DNA of 64,000 bases from Bdellovibrionota bacterium (GTDB lineage: Bacteria > Bdellovibrionota_C > UBA2361 > CALJRW01). Shown piece by piece: positions 2,396 to 57,116 of this stretch. Within the stretch, counting starts at the first letter, position 1, and every line of letters begins with the position of its first letter. The translations under genes were made by a program, and so were the position numbers. Below the pieces are notes generated by a model, which saw only the letters and a list, made by a program, of their open reading frames with translations, made no database searches and was not told the origin of the DNA. Location of the stretch: the NCBI GenBank assembly GCA_041740355.1, contig JBGSMD010000051.1, forward strand, positions 140,487-204,486. Direction: 5' to 3'.

Positions 2396-3476
2396 GTTTT
2401 GTCTTTTTTGGTTTCTTTCTGTTATGTAGTTGCTTGATCAATTTTAAATTCCACTCCGCTATCTGCAGCGCCCGATAAGGAAAATTAAGTGGATTTTTAA
2501 TCGTTTTTAAACTACTAATGGCTCTAAACTTTTTCGGTATTTTTTTTCTCCATTTCTTGGCATTATAAAGAACTTTCAAATATTTTAATAATCCAACATT
2601 ATTATTGATAGCAGCTGCTAGCTCAGGATGTTCTGCTTTTCGGACATAAAACGCCGCTCGGCGATACTCTTTTAATATACATTTGAAACTAGCATCCTGC
2701 CAAGCCTCAGAGTTATTCAACATTTTTAAAAAAAGATAATTCGCTAACTTGAAACGTAAATAAGCTAGATGAATAGAAGATCTCCAGACCTGCGAGACTG
2801 CTCCAATTGACCTTAAATTTAATTCAGTTGGTTTACTAATTGCCGCCAGAAGTCCTGCTGTAAAATCAACTGTAGCCTGATGCGGCTTACGAAAGACCCT
2901 GATCATTGGAACATCACTGACCAATTTTAAACCTAAATTCAGCTCCGCAGTTAATGCTAAATCGTTTAAATTTATACTATAGGGTGGGGCAATTAAAAGA
3001 TTTAGTTGATTTGAATTTCCCCAGACAATGATTCTTGCTTTTTCTTTCTTACTTAAAAGCTTTTGGGCTTCCTGATAACTACTAACTGAGTAATTTAGTT
3101 TATAGATTTTGACATTTGAATCTTTTGGCCAAGCAAGATTTAGATCCTGTAAAAACTTACGACTTTCTTTGCCATGTAAGTCATCAGCAAAATTGGCTAA
3201 GTAAAACTGAGCCTCAAATAAATCGGGTTTTTTACTAACGATTACAAACCAAGTAATAGTAATTAATAAGGTTAAAATTATCAAGCCAGTATGCATTTTT
3301 TGATTGTTAACTTTAAGCTTTAAAGACAGAGTAATAACTAATATTGCACAGACTAACTGAGCTATTCCTGGTGCAATTAACTGCTGAGTAATAAGCAGTT
3401 GATAGCAGACGCCTAAAAGTAGAACTAAAAATAAATATAATTTGAGTTTCATTGAAGGGGACAGTGCACTGAGCAA
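2385..3476 (-). CDS. Hypothetical membrane-anchored protein (N-terminal TM helices, possible C-terminal TPR-like helices); start may be at 3452
   Basis: 363-aa ORF overlapping the purC start; three hydrophobic segments at the N-terminus. Confidence 0.7.
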   Translation of the reverse strand: MLSALSPSMKLKLYLFLVLLLGVCYQLLITQQLIAPGIAQLVCAILVITLSLKLKVNNQKMHTGLIILTLLITITWFVIVSKKPDLFEAQFYLANFADDLHGKESRKFLQDLNLAWPKDSNVKIYKLNYSVSSYQEAQKLLSKKEKARIIVWGNSNQLNLLIAPPYSINLNDLALTAELNLGLKLVSDVPMIRVFRKPHQATVDFTAGLLAAISKPTELNLRSIGAVSQVWRSSIHLAYLRFKLANYLFLKMLNNSEAWQDASFKCILKEYRRAAFYVRKAEHPELAAAINNNVGLLKYLKVLYNAKKWRKKIPKKFRAISSLKTIKNPLNFPYRALQIAEWNLKLIKQLHNRKKPKKTKHEI

Positions 3477-4535: not shown

Positions 4536-5481
4536 TAAACCCCGAATCATTTTTTATGGAACTCCAGCCTTCTCGGTTCCAACACTTGAGCAGTTAATTA
4601 ATAATTCTGCTTGGGAAATAGTTGCAGTTATTACTCAACCAGATCGCCCTAGTGGTCGCGGAAAAAAACTTCAACATTCACCAATTAAAGACTTAGCCTT
4701 AAAACATAATTTGCCAGTCTTACAACCGGAAAATATTAAGCGCGAGATAGCTGAATTTTTATCTGAGCTACAAATGCTGGCTCCAATTGACCTTGCTGTC
4801 GTCCTTGCTTTTGGCCAGATCATCCCTTTAAGCGTTTTAGAATTTCCCAAAAATGGCTCAGTAAATGTTCATGCTTCACTGCTTCCTAGATGGCGAGGAG
4901 CTGCTCCAATTCATCGTGCAATCGAAGCCGGTGATTCCGAAACAGGTGTATGTTTAATGAAAATGGAAGCAGGATTAGATACTGGACCAGTCTATTCCTC
5001 CAGAACTATTCCAATCAAAACTAATGAAACTACCGGTACTCTGCACGATCGCTTAGCAAGATTATCGGCAGAGATAATCAAAGCTGATTTGCTTAAAATT
5101 ATAAATCAAGAATTAAGTCTAACTCCCCAGAATTCCAACTTGGCTACTTATGCCAAAAAAATATCTAGAGCAGAAGAAAAAATTAACTGGAACCAGTCAG
5201 CAAAAACTATTCACAATAAAATTCGCGCCTTCAGTCCTTTCCCTGGTGCGTACACTTCATATCAAGATAAAATTCTTAAAATCTTAGATTCTGAAGTTCG
5301 CACTGAGCCACATCAACATACAGCTGGGCAGATTATCTACGTTGATAAAACTACTTTAGAAATTGCTTGCCAAAATAGTAGTTTAATTATTAAAAGTATT
5401 AAAGCCGAAGGTAAGCGAATTATGACAACTCAAGAATACTTACAAGGAAATAATTTCCAGACAGGAGAACAATTTAAATGA
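4528..5481 (+). CDS. fmt: Methionyl-tRNA formyltransferase (start re-assigned to ATG 4528)
   Basis: IIFYGTPAF, TQPDRPSGRG, NVHASLLPRWRGAAPI; follows def. Confidence 0.96.
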   Translation: MNNKPRIIFYGTPAFSVPTLEQLINNSAWEIVAVITQPDRPSGRGKKLQHSPIKDLALKHNLPVLQPENIKREIAEFLSELQMLAPIDLAVVLAFGQIIPLSVLEFPKNGSVNVHASLLPRWRGAAPIHRAIEAGDSETGVCLMKMEAGLDTGPVYSSRTIPIKTNETTGTLHDRLARLSAEIIKADLLKIINQELSLTPQNSNLATYAKKISRAEEKINWNQSAKTIHNKIRAFSPFPGAYTSYQDKILKILDSEVRTEPHQHTAGQIIYVDKTTLEIACQNSSLIIKSIKAEGKRIMTTQEYLQGNNFQTGEQFK

Positions 5482-6131
5482 ATAAGATTATAATTGCCCC
5501 ATCTATTTTGGCTGCAAACTTAGGAAACTTATCTCATGACTTAGAACTGATCAACCAATCTCAGGCAGCTTGGATCCACATTGATGTGATGGACGGATCA
5601 TTTGTGCCTCCAATTACTTTTGGAGACAATGTTGTTTCAGTCTGTAAAAAATATTCCCAAAAGTTTCTAGATGTTCACCTAATGATCGACCATCCCGAAA
5701 ATCATTTTCAGGAATTTATTAAAGCAGGAGCAGCAGGTATTACTTTTCATTTAGAAGCAACTAAGCAGGCAAGCAGATTGCTACAATCTTTAAAAGAACA
5801 AGGAGTCCAAGCAGGCCTAGCAATCAAACCAAATACACCATTCGAGTTATTTCAAGATTTAATTCCAGAACTAGATCTGCTTTTAATTATGACCGTTGAG
5901 CCTGGCTATGGTGGACAGGCATTTATGCCCGAGATGATTAATAAAATTAAGCTCGCTGCAGAGTATATCAACACTAAAAAGCTCCCTACTAAAATACAAG
6001 TGGATGGTGGAATTAATTTAGAAACCGGCAAAAAATGTTGGCAAGCAGGAGCAGAAATATTAGTTGCTGGATCTTATGTTTTCAATCATGATAATCCAGT
6101 ATTGCAAATTGATTCTTTACTCTTTTCATAA
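5478..6131 (+). CDS. rpe: Ribulose-phosphate 3-epimerase
   Basis: IAPSIL, HIDVMDG, DVHLMI, MTVEPGYGGQ, VDGGIN. Confidence 0.96.
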   Translation: MNKIIIAPSILAANLGNLSHDLELINQSQAAWIHIDVMDGSFVPPITFGDNVVSVCKKYSQKFLDVHLMIDHPENHFQEFIKAGAAGITFHLEATKQASRLLQSLKEQGVQAGLAIKPNTPFELFQDLIPELDLLLIMTVEPGYGGQAFMPEMINKIKLAAEYINTKKLPTKIQVDGGINLETGKKCWQAGAEILVAGSYVFNHDNPVLQIDSLLFS

Positions 6132-6719
6132 ATGACCACACTTCTTATTCTAATTTGTGCCTATTTAATCGGATGTTTTCCCACAGGACTAATAGTTGCT
6201 AAGTCTCAAGGAATTGATATTACAAAAATTGGCAGTGGAAATGTTGGCGCTACTAATATTGCTCGTAACATTGGTAAGAAAGCTGGCTTAATTACCTTAG
6301 TGGTTGATTTACTAAAAGGCCTCCTTCCCGTCTTAGTCGTTACCAACATTGAGTCACTAAATAACATCAACAGTCTGGTTGCAATCATGACAGTCCTCGG
6401 ACACTGTTTCTCCCTGCCAAAATTTTTAAAGGGTGGTAAAGGTGTGGCAACTGGACTGGGGGCAATCTTAGGATTATCACCGCTACTTGGAATTAGTGCT
6501 CTGATTATTTTTGGGGTTATTTTTAAACTAAAACGAATTGTATCTTTAGCTTCGCTTATCGCCGTTGCTGCCGTCCCTTTTCTTGGGGTAATACTGACAG
6601 CTAACTGGGACTTTGGAACTCACCTGCTAATCATCAGCTTGGTTATTGCCTACAAACATCGTGAAAATATTCAGCGTTTACTATCTGGCGAGGAACAAGT
6701 CTTTACGAGCAAGAGCTAA
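6132..6719 (+). CDS. plsY: Glycerol-3-phosphate acyltransferase
   Basis: GSGNVGATN, GHCFS, KGGKGVAT, HRENIQRL. Confidence 0.95.
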   Translation: MTTLLILICAYLIGCFPTGLIVAKSQGIDITKIGSGNVGATNIARNIGKKAGLITLVVDLLKGLLPVLVVTNIESLNNINSLVAIMTVLGHCFSLPKFLKGGKGVATGLGAILGLSPLLGISALIIFGVIFKLKRIVSLASLIAVAAVPFLGVILTANWDFGTHLLIISLVIAYKHRENIQRLLSGEEQVFTSKS

Positions 6720-43806: not shown

Positions 43807-43899
43807 TAGTTCTGCTCTCTTATTCTTTGTTCAAAATTGCTTAGCTAACTTTTTATGTTATGCTATCGCCCCTTAAAGCTATTTAAATTTTTGTCTACA

Positions 43900-45477
43900 A
43901 TGCAAAATCCTACACATTCCTCTGTGCCTATTCAAACCGAACTAGCACTTCGTCCGATGACTGACATGCAAGTTGCCCTAAATTACCCTTGCCACATTGT
44001 GACCGACGAAGATGGTCGTACACAAATTAAAGTTGAAAAATCAAAGGGAACTAAAACATTCGATTATCCTTATTCACCAGTAGCATTAATCAAAGCTTTT
44101 CAAGAAATTCTGGTAATTAGAGAAGAATATGCCACAAAATTAGCTGCCATGGTAATAACTTGTCTTTCCCCTTACCGCTCAATCGCTAAGCAGTTAAAAA
44201 TATTAGCTAACCCAGATAATTTAGAATTTAGCGAAAATCTCATTCAGCAAAAAAAATCAGCTAAAGCATTTATTGCAAAAATAACTGAGTTAGAAACGGA
44301 ACTAAAGCAAGACTTAACAGTTAATATCAAAACCTTACATGAAGAAGGTGGTAGCGATTTGTTAGAAAGTATTACAAATTTGGGTGATGAACGTCGGATA
44401 ACCTTAGCCCCAAGTTTCTTGATTCATTTAAAACAAGAGATTGCTGAAGTTAAGGAAATTGCTCAACCACATGCTGCCTTTCAGCATTTCGCACTGAGGG
44501 TTGAAGCGGTAATTGTTCATTTATTAGATATTGAATCAAAAGACGCCTTGGTTGTGAGTGACTTACTAGCAGTTACTAAGAGTATTGTTACTCAAACACA
44601 AGATCCAATTGCCGGAGCAGTTTTCTTACAAACAAATTTACATCATTTTAGTTTACACGCTAATTTTGGTGATGGTAGTACAACTGATTTATTGTTATCT
44701 GCACAAAATACACGCCACTTAAACAATGACTTTACAACTGCAAACTTAATGGCCAGTGAAGAGGAAAGACCTTTTATTGCACGCCTTCCTTTAACTAAGG
44801 AAAAATTAAATGAGCGCCGTTGTTTTGACTATATTCGCTCTGTTAAAGGAGCGTTGTATCAAGTCTGTGAACAATTAGATACAAAGCTTGAAAATATCTG
44901 GAAAGTTTTTTCGAAATTGGAAAAGCAAGAGGAACGAAAAATATTTCTAGATCAGATAACTCACAATCCAGCGTCTTTTATATTATATCAATTGAATTCT
45001 GCTAACCCGGTTATAGTAGTTCAAGATTTTATAGCTAAACATTCACTCCGAAAACAATATTTCCTTGATAAATCCTCGAAAGAGATTGCCTTAGGAAATG
45101 ATACTCATGGAAATGCTTCGCTAATTGACTTAATTGCCTTAGCAAGTCAAAGACTTAGCGCTAATTTTATTAAATCGCATAACTCTGCTGATAACTCACT
45201 TGGAAAAACTTTGGAAATATTAAGTGCCCATCCCAGTTTCTTAAAGGTATTTAACCTACTTTGTAACCAAACAAATAAAATGGAAGTAGTCTATGATCAT
45301 TTATTTGCAGCACTGAAGGCAAAAGACGAGCCACGACTGCAGGGGTATTTAGCGATCGTTGAAAAATCGAAAGATCTGGCCAGCTTTAAAAAACTAGCTG
45401 AAAAACTAAAAACTCTAGCGACAGTACCTACGAATTCGGATCAATTATTTTCAGCATTATCATCGCCACAAGACTAA
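43900..45477 (+). CDS. Hypothetical coiled-coil protein (likely start 43900)
   Basis: Long ORF, no recognised motif. Confidence 0.65.
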   Translation: MQNPTHSSVPIQTELALRPMTDMQVALNYPCHIVTDEDGRTQIKVEKSKGTKTFDYPYSPVALIKAFQEILVIREEYATKLAAMVITCLSPYRSIAKQLKILANPDNLEFSENLIQQKKSAKAFIAKITELETELKQDLTVNIKTLHEEGGSDLLESITNLGDERRITLAPSFLIHLKQEIAEVKEIAQPHAAFQHFALRVEAVIVHLLDIESKDALVVSDLLAVTKSIVTQTQDPIAGAVFLQTNLHHFSLHANFGDGSTTDLLLSAQNTRHLNNDFTTANLMASEEERPFIARLPLTKEKLNERRCFDYIRSVKGALYQVCEQLDTKLENIWKVFSKLEKQEERKIFLDQITHNPASFILYQLNSANPVIVVQDFIAKHSLRKQYFLDKSSKEIALGNDTHGNASLIDLIALASQRLSANFIKSHNSADNSLGKTLEILSAHPSFLKVFNLLCNQTNKMEVVYDHLFAALKAKDEPRLQGYLAIVEKSKDLASFKKLAEKLKTLATVPTNSDQLFSALSSPQD

Positions 45478-45487
45478 TAGAAATCAA

Positions 45488-46804
45488 TTAGAAGAAATCT
45501 TGGCGTCCAGTTGACCCTTGCAATACCCGAATCGCCCGATTATAGAGGGCATAATCTAATCCTCGTTTTTCTAATGCAAAAAGTCCTGCTTCCGGTTTAG
45601 GACCAACCAAGAAATTAGCAATTGTTCGAATCTGGTTTAGATATTGTTTTGTAACGTTTGGACCAACTACTAAACTGGAAGCTACATCCCAAGTGCCTTT
45701 CAGCATCTCTCCAAAAGACTCCCCTTCCATCCGACAAATTCTGAGATAATTGGCTTGGATTAAATTAGGTAACTTGTTTCTTAAAAAACCCAGCGTCGAT
45801 TGTAATTTATTATGGTCCTTCATTGGATCAAGCAAGCAGTTTACGAACAAGCTCCGTCTGACGGTATCAGGAAGCTCTGGATCTAACATTGTTTTTAATA
45901 TCAGATCTTCTACCCTGGGGCCCATACTTGGCGTTAGGGAACGAGCAACAAATCTTAAATATTGTTCGGCAGGTTGCCCGTGGATTACTGCTAAGCCATG
46001 AAAACGATCAGCTAAACTATTATTATCTAGACGTAATGCTTGCACTAACAAATCTATTCCTTCAGAATCATTTGTTCCTTTTAAAATCATCGGAGCAAGT
46101 AAATGTTGAAATTTTAAACTTCCATAAGTAAGATTCCGCTCAACAACATTGATACTTTCATTAAGTAGACCATAGACCTGATTAAGTACTTCCTGATTAT
46201 TTGTTCCTGCTAAACATTGCGCCAGAACACCGGCACGATGATAACTGTTTGCATCTAAAAATTGCTCTAACAAGAATTTAGCAACAATCGGATCAGAGTT
46301 TTGGGAAACCGCAAAACGATAAGCCTCTTGCTCCTGAATTGTTGAACCAACCCAACGACCGTCTAGAATTGCTAAATTTTTTTCTCGTGTATACCCAATT
46401 TCAAACTGTGGTGTTTCTAAAAGTCTGGTAATCGCATCATTTGCTGCTTTTTGAGTTTCTAAAGCAACTTCGATTTTAGGACTGATTAATCCAGCAACTT
46501 GCATTAAGGATCGGTATTCCTCAGGTAATATTTGCTGCGATTTAGTTTCCATACCACAACTTGAAAACTCTTGGTAAAATACTTCTGTAGTAGCTTCAAT
46601 TGCAGCCCTACTGGCATTCGCCTGGAGACGTTGTGTTTCAGCATTAACCTGACGTAGCGACGATTCTAAAGTTGCAATCTGTTCTTGTAGACGCACCTGC
46701 TCAGCCAAGGTGGATTCAGGTACTGGGTCAGGAGGAACAGTTAAAGATAGAATTAAATCAGTATTTCGTAACAACACAATGAAAATATAAGAAATTGGAA
46801 TCAA
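45488..46804 (-). CDS. Hypothetical protein with N-terminal coiled coil and HEAT-like helices
   Basis: 438-aa ORF; start uncertain. Confidence 0.6.
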   Translation of the reverse strand: MIPISYIFIVLLRNTDLILSLTVPPDPVPESTLAEQVRLQEQIATLESSLRQVNAETQRLQANASRAAIEATTEVFYQEFSSCGMETKSQQILPEEYRSLMQVAGLISPKIEVALETQKAANDAITRLLETPQFEIGYTREKNLAILDGRWVGSTIQEQEAYRFAVSQNSDPIVAKFLLEQFLDANSYHRAGVLAQCLAGTNNQEVLNQVYGLLNESINVVERNLTYGSLKFQHLLAPMILKGTNDSEGIDLLVQALRLDNNSLADRFHGLAVIHGQPAEQYLRFVARSLTPSMGPRVEDLILKTMLDPELPDTVRRSLFVNCLLDPMKDHNKLQSTLGFLRNKLPNLIQANYLRICRMEGESFGEMLKGTWDVASSLVVGPNVTKQYLNQIRTIANFLVGPKPEAGLFALEKRGLDYALYNRAIRVLQGSTGRQDFF

Positions 46805-47356: not shown

Positions 47357-47896
47357 ATGAGAAGAAATTACCTAACGAATAGTCAGTCTAAAGGTTTTAC
47401 TTTAGTAGAACTTCTAGTGACTATTGGTGTTTTGGGTATTTTATCGTCAATGTCCGTCGCGCAATATGAAATATTCCGACAAGCAGCTAATGATACTGCC
47501 GCAATGTCAGCAGGCAGAAATGTTGCTACTGCAATCACTGCTTACACCATTGATGGTCAATGGGATCCAAACGTTACCACTGTAATTGACTTTGAAATTA
47601 GTGCTAGTGGTGAAAATTCGCGAGGCTCGGTGGGCGATCAGTACGATTCAGAGAATTTTGGTAGCTCTACCTTTCTGCCAGGCTATTCCCATCAAAAAGG
47701 TGTCCACTTAGCAGTGGTCATTTATTTGAATAATACCTACAACTACGGAATCTACACAGGTAGTTGCAAAGGAAGCTACTCCCCAGCAGCTGGAGATGGA
47801 GATGCACGAACGGTCTATGAATTAATTGGACAAGGTTTTAGTAAGTATCCTTACGCTAGTTGGATAGTTCCAAATTCTTATGCCTGTGACGTATGA
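47357..47896 (+). CDS. Type IV pilin-like protein
   Basis: SKG/FTLVELLVTIGVLGIL; C-terminal Cys pair. Confidence 0.87.
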   Translation: MRRNYLTNSQSKGFTLVELLVTIGVLGILSSMSVAQYEIFRQAANDTAAMSAGRNVATAITAYTIDGQWDPNVTTVIDFEISASGENSRGSVGDQYDSENFGSSTFLPGYSHQKGVHLAVVIYLNNTYNYGIYTGSCKGSYSPAAGDGDARTVYELIGQGFSKYPYASWIVPNSYACDV

Positions 47897-53111: not shown

Positions 53112-53525
53112 CTAATGAATAAAATTTTTATCTAGATAGACCAAATCAAAAAGTGGAATTTTTGCTTCAATAATTTCTTTGTTAGGTCTGATAAAGGAGT
53201 AACTTCCTTGCATTTGACCATAGACAGAGTTGATTTGAACATAGCTACGATATTCATAAACTCCTCGCGGCTCAATAACTGGTTGCTCACCTACTACGCC
53301 TTCTCCTCTAACTTCATCAGTTAAAGTTTGGTTTTCATAAATCAGCCAATGTCGGCTAATTAGCTGTATTGTTTCGCTTCGCAAGTTCTCAATATTAATT
53401 AAGTAGGAAAAAGTATATAACTTATTGATAATACTAGATTCTTCAGGTAAAAACTGAGGAGTAACCGAAATCTGAATGTTCTCAGTTGTATCTTGATACT
53501 GGTGAAATCTGAAGATATCGCTCAT
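53112..53525 (-). CDS. apaG: ApaG protein
   Basis: QLISRHWLI, VRGEGVVGEQPVI, MQGSY. Confidence 0.93.
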   Translation of the reverse strand: MSDIFRFHQYQDTTENIQISVTPQFLPEESSIINKLYTFSYLINIENLRSETIQLISRHWLIYENQTLTDEVRGEGVVGEQPVIEPRGVYEYRSYVQINSVYGQMQGSYSFIRPNKEIIEAKIPLFDLVYLDKNFIH

Positions 53526-53734
53526 TTTTCAAACATTGTTCTAAAATTAGAAATAATTTCTTACCATCTTGGTTCAAGCTAATTGAATTGGAAGTCTGAA
53601 GAATTTAGGAAGTTATCCCAGCTTTCCACAGCCTAAAGAATTTAACAAACTTAAACCTAGAATCATCAAAAAATAAAAAATAATTTCTTTGTATTTTTTA
53701 CTTAACTTAACATTTTAATTCGCATATAACTAGA

Positions 53735-54335
53735 TTCATATAGAGATCTGGGTCAGAAGAATTAAATTAATAAAGATATTAATTGCCATCGTTAATTAGT
53801 AATTATTTCTCAAAATAATAACTAGAGCCTACTAAGCCTGAGAACTTAGTGGTTAAAACGAAACCTGAAAAAATTTCAGGCACGATTAATTTCGTGGTGC
53901 TAGTTAAAATTAAGTTTTTAACAATCGTTTGTCGGTTTATCAAACGAAACACAGCACAGTTCCAAGAGTTAGTCTGCAAGGACGCGATACTCTAAGGTTG
54001 TACTACCGAAGGAACAAACACTATCTTGCAATGTGTTTAATAGAATACAAAACGACTGGATGTTTTGTAGATAATAACTATAAGTTGGAAAACAACTTTT
54101 GTTAGAGCAATAGAAAAGAATATCGAGGACTAGCATGGTATTGTCAGGAATCAATACTTACAAGTAACTCCGAACTTGAGTCTGATTAATTTAATTTATT
54201 ATAGACTAATTTTTTAGCTACCAGTCAGAAAGCATTAAAAACTTTCAGAAGCTAATTAATAATACGGTTTGTACTCTGCCCTCAAGTATAGCTAACCACT
54301 ACACTTGCAGTTTAGACTGATCGAAATTCGAATTT
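53735..54335 (+). ncRNA. Candidate large ornate structured ncRNA (~580-600 nt)
   Basis: More than 15 hairpins, multi-way junctions, closing stem ggtcag 53751-56/ctgatc 54317-22, loop-loop complementarities, GCAA tetraloop, upstream TATAAC and downstream terminator. Confidence 0.7.
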
Positions 54336-54370
54336 AGGGGATATTGGCTTCAAAACCAATATCCCCTTTT
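54336..54370 (+). terminator. Intrinsic terminator closing the candidate ncRNA
   Basis: aggggatattgg-cttcaaaa-ccaatatcccct then ttt; no + strand CDS ends upstream of it. Confidence 0.85.
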
Positions 54371-54899
54371 ACGTTTCACACTACTAATAGTCGGCAACAG
54401 ATTTCTTATTAAATTGCTAGTTTTATCTAAGAACAGCCTAGTAGCATTTCTAATCAAACTTTCTTCCATAGTTACTATAAAAGTAATTTACGTTAGTAAA
54501 TTTAACAGGCTCATTACAGCTAATTCAAATCTTGGATTTCTGTCTCCCCAAAGGTTTTGCTGCTGCGGATTGCTTAACTAAAAACAATACAAATAGTGAT
54601 TCCAAGCAAAATCGATAGTTTTTTAAAGTAATTTATTTGGGGGACTCAATATATTTTATTTTCCCAGCAATAAATGAATCTAACTCTAATCAAAAATAAT
54701 CATAGTTAATAAGTTTTGCTTGTTTTTGTGGGTATTTAAAATGTAATTTGAGAGTATTTTTTACTTATTTCTTGGTATTTAGCAGTTTCGAAAGGCTTAA
54801 TAGAAACAATGTTTTATAAAACTAGATTATTAATGTCCAAGATTTAAAAATTGCCCATATAATTAATGAATACTGAACCACGAACCGATATTAAATGAA

Positions 54900-57116
54900 A
54901 TGAGTCACAAGTATAACCTAGCAAAAATTCTCTTTAAACTCGCCTTGATAGATTATGTGCCGGAATTTGAGGTGATCGAAAAGGATGATCGGGGACTTAT
55001 TCGTTACCTTGATGAGAATCAATTATTAGATAAGAAGCTTGCTTATCTAGCACTTGCAAGAGAATTCCATATCGATTTCTACGATCTAGAATCTGAAGAA
55101 GTAAAAAACAGAATGATGGTCGATCGCCTGATTCATCGTGTTGACATTGATAAACTTGTCGAAAATAAATGTCTACCAATTATCGATCTAGGGCAAACGC
55201 TGATTGTCGCTTGTTGTAACCCCTTAGATTTTGAAATAAAAAACTGGCTCAAATTTGAATATGCCAAAGACATTGAATTAGTGCTAGCCGATGAACTTTT
55301 AATCTTAGATACCTTAAAGAAAAAAAATTCTCACTTGCATGTGACCGCTGAGCGTAATGGTGAGATTGAAGAAAGAAATGATAAATATGATGCCCCAGCA
55401 ATTAGAATTTGCAATGAAATTTTAGCTGGTGGTGTGACCAGAGATGCAAGTGATATTCATATTGAGCCAAAACAAGATATCGTTAAAGTTAAACTCCGGG
55501 TCGATGGGACGATGGAAGATTTTATGGAGTTTTCAGCTGAATTAAAAAATAACATTGCTAGCCGAATTAAAATTATATCAGGACTAGATATTTCTGAACG
55601 CCGTCGCCCACAAGATGGAAAATTAAGGATTGGTATTGGCAAAGAAAAGTATGACATGCGGGTGTCGACTTTACCAACTCCCTATGGCGAAAAGATTGTA
55701 ATGAGGATTTTAAAATCGAATTACGATCAGCTAAAGTTCTCTACCTTAGGATTATATCCTGTGCTAGAACGTCAACTTCAAGATATCTTATCTTCAACAG
55801 GTAAATTAATGTTAGTAACTGGCCCTACGGGGTCTGGTAAAACAACAACTCTCTATACCTGTTTGAAATTTTGCCAAGAAACTGCTGGTAACATTCAAAC
55901 AGTAGAAGACCCAATTGAACAAACCATTCAAGGTATTAACCAAATTCAAATCAACCATAATATTGGAGTAGATTTCGTTGCCGCCTTACGATCGATCTTA
56001 CGACAAGATCCAGACGTAATCATGATCGGTGAGATTCGAGATGCTGAAACCGCAAAAATTGCTTTACAGGCGGCAGATACAGGTCACCTTGTACTTTCCA
56101 CGCTCCACACCAATTCGGCGCCATCGGCAGTTACACGATTATTGAACTTAGGAATCGATAGTTCGATGATTGCCGCAAACTTAGCTGGAGTTTTAGCACA
56201 AAGACTAGTCCGCAGGTTGTGTGAATCCTGCAAAACTGTGCTCCCAAAAAGTGAGTATATAAAATATAAAAATGCCTTGGTTTTTTCCGGATTCGATTTT
56301 GACAACACACCGATGTATACCTGCAAAGGCTGTCATAAATGTAACCAAAGCGGTTACAAAGGGAGAGTTGGGGTATATAGTTTTCTAAGGATTACTAGTG
56401 AAATTGCAGCATTAATCTTTGATGGGGCAAGCTTAACCCAAGTTATTAAAACAGCTAAAGAAGCAGGCTTTCGAGATCTACATGAAGCGGCAGCTGATTT
56501 ATTAACAGATGGAACAACTTCACTGGATGAGGCTTTGCCCTATATTATTGAGCAGAGTGCCGAGGCTGAGCGTTCCGCAAGACCTCCAACTATGGCCATA
56601 TCTGCAAATGATGTTCAACAAATTAGGATTGCACATGAAGAAAATGAAGCAAAAAAATTTGCTCAAGCAGCAATAGATCGAACTGAAGCAATTTCTACCG
56701 CCACATCTAATCTTAGAAAGCCAGAAGATACAATACACTCCAAACCGATTGCTAAACCAAAGATTTTAGTGATTGATGATAGTGATGATGCCCGTTATCT
56801 CCTCAGTGTCATGTTAAAAAGCAATCTTTTTGAAGTGCAAGAAGCCGTGAATGGTAAAGATGGCTTAGAGAAAGCTAGAAGCTATTTACCAGATATAATT
56901 CTTTGTGACTATGAAATGCCGATCATGAATGGTCGTGATTTTTTGATTTCTGCCAGACAAGATTCTCAACTACATAAGACACCGATTGTCATGTTAACAG
57001 CGATTGATACAGAAGAAAATGAAACAGCCTTAATTGATTTAGGAGCCAGTGATTTTCTCAGTAAAAACACTTCTTATAAATTAATGCTTTCAAGAATCAA
57101 GAGATTCTTACATTAA
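54900..57116 (+). CDS. GspE/PilB-family secretion ATPase fused to a C-terminal response-regulator receiver domain
   Basis: [48 protein letters not shown] zinc motif; REC ILVIDDS...ILCDYEMPIMNG...MLTA...FLSK. Confidence 0.92.
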   Translation: MSHKYNLAKILFKLALIDYVPEFEVIEKDDRGLIRYLDENQLLDKKLAYLALAREFHIDFYDLESEEVKNRMMVDRLIHRVDIDKLVENKCLPIIDLGQTLIVACCNPLDFEIKNWLKFEYAKDIELVLADELLILDTLKKKNSHLHVTAERNGEIEERNDKYDAPAIRICNEILAGGVTRDASDIHIEPKQDIVKVKLRVDGTMEDFMEFSAELKNNIASRIKIISGLDISERRRPQDGKLRIGIGKEKYDMRVSTLPTPYGEKIVMRILKSNYDQLKFSTLGLYPVLERQLQDILSSTGKLMLVTGPTGSGKTTTLYTCLKFCQETAGNIQTVEDPIEQTIQGINQIQINHNIGVDFVAALRSILRQDPDVIMIGEIRDAETAKIALQAADTGHLVLSTLHTNSAPSAVTRLLNLGIDSSMIAANLAGVLAQRLVRRLCESCKTVLPKSEYIKYKNALVFSGFDFDNTPMYTCKGCHKCNQSGYKGRVGVYSFLRITSEIAALIFDGASLTQVIKTAKEAGFRDLHEAAADLLTDGTTSLDEALPYIIEQSAEAERSARPPTMAISANDVQQIRIAHEENEAKKFAQAAIDRTEAISTATSNLRKPEDTIHSKPIAKPKILVIDDSDDARYLLSVMLKSNLFEVQEAVNGKDGLEKARSYLPDIILCDYEMPIMNGRDFLISARQDSQLHKTPIVMLTAIDTEENETALIDLGASDFLSKNTSYKLMLSRIKRFLH

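Follow-up and report, generated by a model that had tools for sequence, protein, structure and literature searches.

To our knowledge, very few ornate conserved bacterial RNAs of more than 500 nucleotides (nt) are known besides ribosomal RNAs (rRNAs) and introns. The closest described systems to the element reported here, a predicted non-coding RNA (ncRNA) on the + strand of a 64,000-nt stretch of contig JBGSMD010000051.1 from a Bdellovibrionota bacterium (the whole stretch being referred to as the window), are ROOL (581 nt on average), GOLLD (~800 nt) and OLE (~600 nt, from Bacillota). According to passages of PMC5737381, no RNAs are longer and more complex than ROOL except rRNAs, GOLLD and group II introns, reports of ROOL span three phyla, and ROOL and GOLLD are often located next to transfer RNA (tRNA) genes and in prophages. 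OLE, ROOL and GOLLD were shown in 2025 to form RNA-only quaternary assemblies, and a switch between palindromes in one loop served as evidence for symmetric intermolecular kissing loops in OLE and GOLLD (both as given in excerpts of PMC12286853).

The RNA of the window resembles ROOL and GOLLD in being large and ornate, with several multi-stem junctions and unknown function; those RNAs form their own transcription units, as is likewise proposed here from sequence alone. It differs from them in that the copies in the window and in a congener do not lie near tRNA or prophage genes, a tRNA-Thr gene ~1.3 kb downstream of the copy in a sister genus being the exception, in that no covariance model matches and nothing similar occurs in phage or viral collections, and in its occurrence in one family only. 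The likeness to OLE consists in length, covariation-supported hairpins and junctions, a chromosomal, single-copy location and a candidate symmetric kissing loop with a switching palindromic tetranucleotide, as described for OLE loop L9.3 in excerpts of PMC12286853. The differences are the missing match to the Rfam model and the origin from a different, small phylum-level lineage. OLE is associated with its partner protein (oap) genes in extremophilic or anaerobic Bacillota; such genes were not evident among 14 neighbouring proteins scanned by domain name, a scan that included no search aimed at them. The raiA motif and HEARO, further bacterial ncRNAs that had no assigned function or gained one only lately, are structured, conserved, non-coding and intergenic as well. 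However, the raiA RNA is much shorter (~200 nt) and very widespread, and HEARO accompanies IS605-type transposase genes, of which none is found near the RNA here; neither family yields an Rfam match.

Our analysis makes it very likely that this locus is the gene for a stand-alone, highly structured ncRNA of ~630 nt from an uncatalogued class, which would have its own promoter and terminator and act in trans. We favor this reading because of the compensatory changes in its helices, a block of conservation bounded by promoter and terminator, the lack of a conserved open reading frame (ORF) and folding beyond that of controls. Placed beside the descriptive kind of large ornate bacterial ncRNAs (>500 nt, several multi-helix junctions with compensatory changes), the RNA has ~634 nt and at least three junction domains, with three sequences available. 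The comparative evidence argues that it is a real, new and lineage-restricted large ncRNA, representing a new class within this kind.

The window genome (G000; 3.27 Mb, 74 contigs, 97% complete) was compared with a congener (G001) and a member of a sister genus (G002), all three from uncultured bacteria of the family f1, within 91 genomes of the order and 124 species genomes of the class. The phylum consists of the same 124 genomes, all of one class, which marks the source organism as part of a small, mostly uncultured phylum-level lineage. The element is single-copy in each of the genomes carrying it.

G001 carries the region at 91% identity and with the same gene order. Identity amounts to 66% in the apaG-proximal spacer, 80-88% in the promoter region and 88-100% over 53740-54335, and drops to ~40% (unalignable) right beyond the terminator, sharply after 54377. 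Among ~634 aligned positions, 56 substitutions were counted, 28 of them in paired columns of an RNAalifold structure. Of these, 22 constitute 11 doubly compensated pairs and six are one-sided changes kept via G-U, while no pair was broken. When 28 substitutions were placed at random over the paired columns, 11 double hits were obtained in 0 of 100,000 trials. Since the RNAalifold structure was optimised on the same two sequences, it leans toward the structure tested. As an independent test, the structure drawn from the window alone in an initial annotation of this DNA was scored separately against G001: its 151 pairs left 96.7% of 302 cells paired, with nine pairs changed on both sides compared with 0-1 in six slid controls. 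Compensatory changes in homologues, as asked for in that annotation, are thus present in G001 and also in G002 (see below).

The initial annotation had, in addition, set folding better than shuffled A/T-rich sequence as a condition beforehand. The + strand RNA reached a minimum free energy (MFE) of -157.9 kcal/mol compared with -123.0 +/- 4.5 kcal/mol in 20 dinucleotide shuffles (z -7.75), whereas the adjacent downstream spacer (z -0.14) and a pair of equally long coding segments (z -0.85 and +0.12) stayed close to zero. Considering these local controls, the folding is no by-product of A/T-rich composition. The copy in G002 folds beyond its shuffles to a similar degree (z -8.28).

The RNA locus occupies an ORF-poor gap of 1.37 kb (53526-54899) between two ordinary genes, within which the longest ORF has at most 61 amino acids (aa). 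The gap and its flanks are composed as follows:

53112-53525, - strand: apaG, one flank of the gap, divergent from the RNA and preceded by ferrochelatase (hemH)
53665-53697, + strand: A/T-rich block directly before the -35 hexamer, 80% identical in G001, possibly an UP-like promoter element
53702-53730, + strand: promoter-like hexamers, option 1, TTAACT, 17-nt spacer, TATAAC (53725-30)
53707-53736, + strand: promoter-like hexamers, option 2, TTAACA, 18-nt spacer, TAGATT
53738-54371, + strand: predicted RNA, ~634 nt, with a predicted 5' end and the terminator as 3' end
54336-54371, + strand: intrinsic terminator, 12-base-pair (bp) stem with six G-C pairs (54336-54367), 8-nt loop, then TTTT
54372-54899, + strand: unconserved spacer before the pilB-like ATPase gene, outside the RNA, ~40% column identity to G001, z -0.14
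54900-57116, + strand: pilB/T2SSE-type ATPase gene, the other flank, in the same orientation as the RNA

The transcript would start near 53738-53743, probably from its own sigma-70-type promoter with the A/T-rich block upstream, which is possibly an UP-like element. A similar A/T-rich block precedes the G002 copy at the corresponding position and gave the best blastn segment between both regions (E 0.006, low complexity). The -10-like TATAAC of the initial annotation is present, and its 12-bp terminator was recovered by a terminator scan of the + strand at the same position. In G001, one terminator pair is changed on both sides and the tail consists of seven T.

The 25 helices of the initial annotation were rebuilt from their coordinates, except for one inner helix that lacked coordinates and was placed at 53925-31/53941-47. 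All 25 were found where they had been described: 24 are fully complementary, and 54283-54307 pairs at eight of nine positions. The GCAA tetraloop hairpin is likewise present in the window. In combination with the substitution pattern, the following parts of the RNA were delineated:

53735-53800, + strand: 5' segment without substitution against G001 (0 changes in 66 nt; ~5.8 expected by arithmetic from 56 substitutions in ~634 positions)
53789-53861, + strand: 5' three-way-junction domain, closing stem 53789-93/53857-61 around two bulged hairpins
53864-80 and 53881-96, + strand: two hairpins with one doubly changed pair each in G001, probabilities 0.92 and 0.99
53897-53957, + strand: junction domain 1, closing helix 53897-901/53953-57 around two hairpins, the second with one doubly changed pair
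53953-54015, + strand: invariant core of a single-stranded 7-mer and three-way junction 2, the sole part that can be aligned in sequence with G002
53959-63/54011-15, 53965-69/53989-93 and 53996-98/54005-07, + strand: junction 2 helices, with the GCAA hairpin at 53972-83
53999-54004, + strand: hairpin loop with the self-complementary tetranucleotide GUAC, CUAG in the homologous G002 loop
54016-54038, + strand: hairpin H6, 11-nt loop with the palindrome UUGCAA, five of six pairs doubly changed in G002
54046-54069, + strand: hairpin H7, 8 bp and 8-nt loop, six of eight pairs doubly changed, kept in all three genomes
54082-54098, + strand: hairpin H8, GAAA-type loop, one doubly changed pair
54096-54189, + strand: 3' segment with hairpin 54138-57 that has hardly changed (a single substitution over 94 nt relative to G001; ~8 expected by arithmetic)
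54214-54255, + strand: 3' hairpin domain, outer helix 54214-19/54250-55, inner helix 54228-32/54242-46

Direct support from G001 falls on 53864-80, 53881-96, the second hairpin of junction 1, H7, H8 (which is rearranged in G001 into a bulged stem with a GAAA tetraloop), the inner helix within 54228-46 and the terminator. In the RNAalifold structure, the 5' three-way junction has one pair changed on both sides and two one-sided changes involving G-U, with helix probabilities of 0.64-0.99. Two doubly changed pairs and one G-U change were found in the inner helix of the 3' domain, the probabilities of which reach 0.98-0.99. The near invariance of 54096-54189 suggests a sequence-specific role, since few of its positions lie in well-supported helices.

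Not every helix of the initial annotation stood up equally well. In G001, 54266-80 loses two of three pairs, and 54179-207 and 54283-307 lose one each. The closing stem 53751-56/54317-22 is complementary in the window but has an ensemble probability of 0.20, compared with 0.74 for a 5'-3' closure through 53750-57/54275-81. The same applies to the hairpin 53765-84, which is complementary but reaches 0.06 compared with 0.9 for a long-range A/U helix. Neither of these two alternative pairings shows covariation. The drawn structure is probably wrong in its exact closing stem and in a few of its small helices.

A diverged copy was found in the sister genus. The covariance model R1, built from window positions 53860-54043, missed G002 in a filtered genome search and, with filters switched off, matched its contig with 25.7 bits (E 1e-7); R2, a smaller core model of 68 positions, matched it with 73.5 bits (E 3e-16), the E-values of both core models being rough. 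The match lies in an ORF-free gap of 2.6 kb, again upstream of and divergent from apaG, with a G002 ApaG protein only 41% identical to that of the window. Measured between a promoter-like site and a G+C-rich hairpin with nine T behind it, the G002 copy would be ~940 nt long. Only the 7-nt single strand, the three junction 2 helices and the purine-rich junction strands can be aligned by sequence. Within the core, a three-sequence alignment shows changes on both sides in 15 of 54 pairs, compared with 1-4 in slid controls, and two junction 2 helices contain one doubly changed pair each. H7 follows H6 after 7 nt with 8 bp and an 8-nt loop in all three genomes and has 95.8% of its cells paired in an alignment made gap-free, by position alone. 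The closing helix of junction 1 is conserved in sequence on both strands and encloses a much larger insert in G002. A shared 8-nt word opens a 5' three-way junction of similar layout in the window and in G002, as judged by eye only. Homology is established over ~120 nt, covering the core, H6 and H7, and is no more than plausible for the rest of the RNA.

Apart from apaG, which is the sole conserved neighbor of the RNA across the window, G001 and G002, the surroundings of the G002 copy differ completely from those of the window. A tandem repeat and tRNA-Thr follow downstream in place of the ATPase gene. On the G002 contig (L012), a 168-bp unit repeated in tandem 2.8 times (96% matches; 2979-3450) lies directly downstream of the copy, followed by a 5' tRNA fragment (2416-2468) and an intact tRNA-Thr gene (anticodon TGT; 2174-2249), all of them on the strand of the RNA. 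The duplicated tRNA end may be the mark of an old integration site. None of the four surrounding ORFs (1408-2145, 5181-6698, 110-652 and 683-997) has a Pfam match.

Several points weigh against the reading as a stand-alone structured RNA or narrow it. Three sequences from two lineages are too few for R-scape-type statistics, and the three-sequence core alignment was fitted to the model and leans toward the tested structure. When the MFE structure of the window alone was applied, 25 pairs were touched in G001, of which 17 were kept (11 of them double) and eight, mostly long-range ones, were broken; therefore, no model built on a single sequence is right in all its parts. A covariance model of the 5' domain (R3) missed the expected place in G002, its best matches (E ~0.7) lying elsewhere, and the 3' halves of both RNAs could not be matched helix by helix. 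Promoter-like sites were not commoner than in shuffles (7 compared with 6.8); promoter support consists in position and 88% conservation in G001 only, and we infer the promoter, the 5' end and the transcript itself. Of the kissing loops proposed in the initial annotation, both complementary loop pairs are present, but covariation supports neither: in one of them nothing varies, and in the other G001 has lost a base pair, which refutes neither of them. The G002 equivalent of the first kissing-loop hairpin has a different loop, the hairpins having been matched by eye, a matching that R3 did not confirm. Finally, the structure of the initial annotation does not discriminate between strands, with 96.7% of cells paired on + and 96.0% on -.

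In the mechanism that we propose, the RNA would be transcribed from its own sigma-70-type promoter, divergently from apaG, and end at its own intrinsic terminator. It would fold into a chain of domains, starting with the 5' three-way junction and two hairpins, continuing with two adjacent multi-helix junctions, the second of which is the conserved core, and closing with a hairpin row and the 3' domain; some long-range 5'-3' closure is predicted. The RNA would then most likely act in trans by means of its folded shape, as a scaffold or an assembly, rather than by coding or by regulating the downstream gene. Two copies might be held together by symmetric kissing contacts via two neighboring core loops, giving a homodimer or higher oligomer. 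Among 19 hairpin loops, self-complementary words containing G/C occur only in these two adjacent core loops. The junction 2 loop carries GUAC in the window and in G001, where it is part of a 6-nt palindrome, and CUAG in G002. The H6 loop carries UUGCAA in the window and in G002 and retains the 4-nt core in G001, the loops being otherwise different. Self-association is proposed because the loop palindrome switches from GUAC to CUAG, the signature used for OLE and GOLLD. This argument involves two loops in two lineages, for which we roughly estimate a chance of a few percent, and we regard self-association through the palindromic core loops as a tentative possibility. It would parallel the RNA-only assemblies (nanocages) of ROOL and GOLLD described in passages of PMC12286853 and PMC5737381. 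Slightly less probable is the wider proposal that the RNA, a chromosomal one from a small and little-studied phylum, is the founding member of a new self-assembling class of ~630-940 nt, genetically linked to apaG and unrelated in sequence and fold to OLE, ROOL and GOLLD, which would form RNA-only dimers or higher assemblies via two adjacent palindromic kissing loops of the invariant core.

Among other explanations, the element might be a leader or attenuator of great length acting in cis, which would respond to a signal and use its terminator to control read-through into the pilB-like ATPase/receiver gene. The RNA and this gene (54900-57116) share their orientation, the arrangement is the same in G001, and the terminal terminator could serve as an attenuator. 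However, an unconserved, unstructured spacer of 528 nt separates terminator and gene in the window, and riboswitch or leader families gave no match. The downstream neighbor differs between the genera, the G002 RNA being followed by the tandem repeat and tRNA-Thr instead of the ATPase gene, which argues against a cis-acting leader. Overall, we consider this explanation very unlikely.

Of similarly small probability is a functional transcript of comparable size on the minus strand, directed toward apaG. This strand folds well, too (z -4.68), most helices are Watson-Crick and therefore symmetric, which agrees with the paired cells given above, and the RNAalifold analysis yields 11 doubly changed pairs here as well. 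Nevertheless, a T run behind the terminal hairpin is seen on just one strand in each genome, + in the window and its counterpart in G001 and G002, one-sided changes kept via G-U number six on + compared with one on -, and both the RNAalifold energy (-149.9 kcal/mol on + compared with -143.6 on -) and the z score (-7.75 compared with -4.68) are better on +. The + strand is favored but not proven, and we assign it with moderate confidence.

A highly diverged member of ROOL, GOLLD, OLE or HEARO beyond the reach of current covariance models would explain the similar size and the ornate multi-junction layout. The tRNA gene and fragment ~1.3 kb downstream of the RNA in G002 would fit with it, tRNA proximity being typical of GOLLD and ROOL in passages of PMC5737381. 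Against this stand the Rfam results: we compared the 4227 families of Rfam 15 by cmscan, at gathering score over the 64-kb window and at E<=10 with permissive filters over 53400-55000. No family reached the gathering score anywhere in the window, and at E<=10, with filters set permissively, none of the 4227 gave a credible match in either the window region or the copy in G002. The sole match at E<=10 in 53400-55000, to a Tetrahymena snoRNA (E 7.6), lies upstream inside apaG and was rejected as implausible, and the region of the G002 copy gave just the tRNA and weak chance matches. Covariance models of ROOL, GOLLD, OLE, HEARO, raiA, riboswitches and introns matched neither the window region nor the G002 copy. 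Of the two options in the initial annotation, a ROOL/GOLLD-type or a new large ncRNA, the latter fits. Its statement that no tRNA gene is nearby and that the context is a housekeeping one also agrees with our data, as no tRNA gene was found in the 64-kb window and the neighbors include hemH, apaG, sufBCD and citrate synthase. In respect to these neighbors, and to the lack of similarity in phage, plasmid or viral collections, membership in a known class is hardly credible.

The least probable explanation, a decayed gene or mobile-element relic without functional RNA, whose A/T-rich sequence (32% G+C) folds by chance and is conserved by the closeness of the congeners, would suit a carriage by just one close and one distant relative, but is contradicted by adjoining neutral DNA that is unalignable between the same congeners (~40% identity), by substitutions concentrated in compensated pairs, by the persistence of core, H6 and H7 in a genus whose ApaG is just 41% identical, and by the single copy per genome and the absence from phage, plasmid and viral sets.

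The stand-alone RNA is also distinct from the common structured RNAs. The initial annotation had stated that it is neither transfer-messenger RNA (tmRNA) nor RNase P RNA nor an intron, which is consistent with the Rfam scan and with the location of RNase P RNA (276 bits) and tmRNA (208 bits) on other contigs of the window genome and likewise elsewhere in G001 and G002. By comparison, 6S RNA (RF00013) was not found in any of these three genomes, although RNase P RNA and tmRNA were readily found; it may be too diverged to detect or absent. The candidate itself has neither the size nor the shape of 6S RNA and gave no 6S match, so that this identity was rejected. A small protein was dismissed as well, as no ORF is conserved across the three genomes: all four ORFs of at least 20 aa are truncated in G001 and absent from G002. 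A CsrB-like protein sponge was discarded with a count of GGA words, made by eye, close to the expectation from composition. No description of this RNA was found in text searches, which returned known classes only and cannot find a sequence, so that this negative weighs little.

Regarding its distribution, R2 detects the RNA in all three genomes of family f1, in none of the order's 88 other genomes and in none of the rest of the 124-genome class. BLASTN over 41 relatives returned G001 only, and R1 with strict filters over the 91 order genomes returned the window genome and G001 only. Four marginal R2 matches in 40 relatives under laxer filters (E 0.24-0.86 per genome) are all located inside long ORFs and were taken as chance. 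An exact-pattern scan over one genome per GTDB species yielded only G001, G002 and one match in a coding region, which was taken as chance, being unsupported by the core model. A degenerate core pattern had no match in metagenome contigs or in viral contigs, exact matching being prone to miss diverged copies, and no blastn match was obtained in phage and plasmid collections.

A further, unrelated large RNA in a housekeeping chromosomal context of a little-known phylum would widen the small set of such RNAs and provide a new target for cryo-electron microscopy. It would allow one to ask whether large orphan RNAs generally self-assemble. In addition, it would mean that a single family can be the whole range of such an RNA, a situation in which comparative pipelines needing many homologues would miss it.

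The wider neighborhood in the window comprises genes for sufB/C/D-like proteins, citrate synthase, an old-yellow-enzyme-type reductase, OsmC, an ArsR-type regulator and an ABC transporter. Two ORFs further upstream, 43855-45477 (540 aa) and 45488-46804 (438 aa), have no Pfam match at E<=0.001. Close to them, at 47357-47896, is a gene with an N-terminal methylation motif of the pilin type. The ATPase encoded at 54900-57116 is of the type II/IV secretion kind (T2SSE) and carries an MshEN domain at its N-terminus and a response-regulator receiver domain at its C-terminus, a fusion that is also found in G001.

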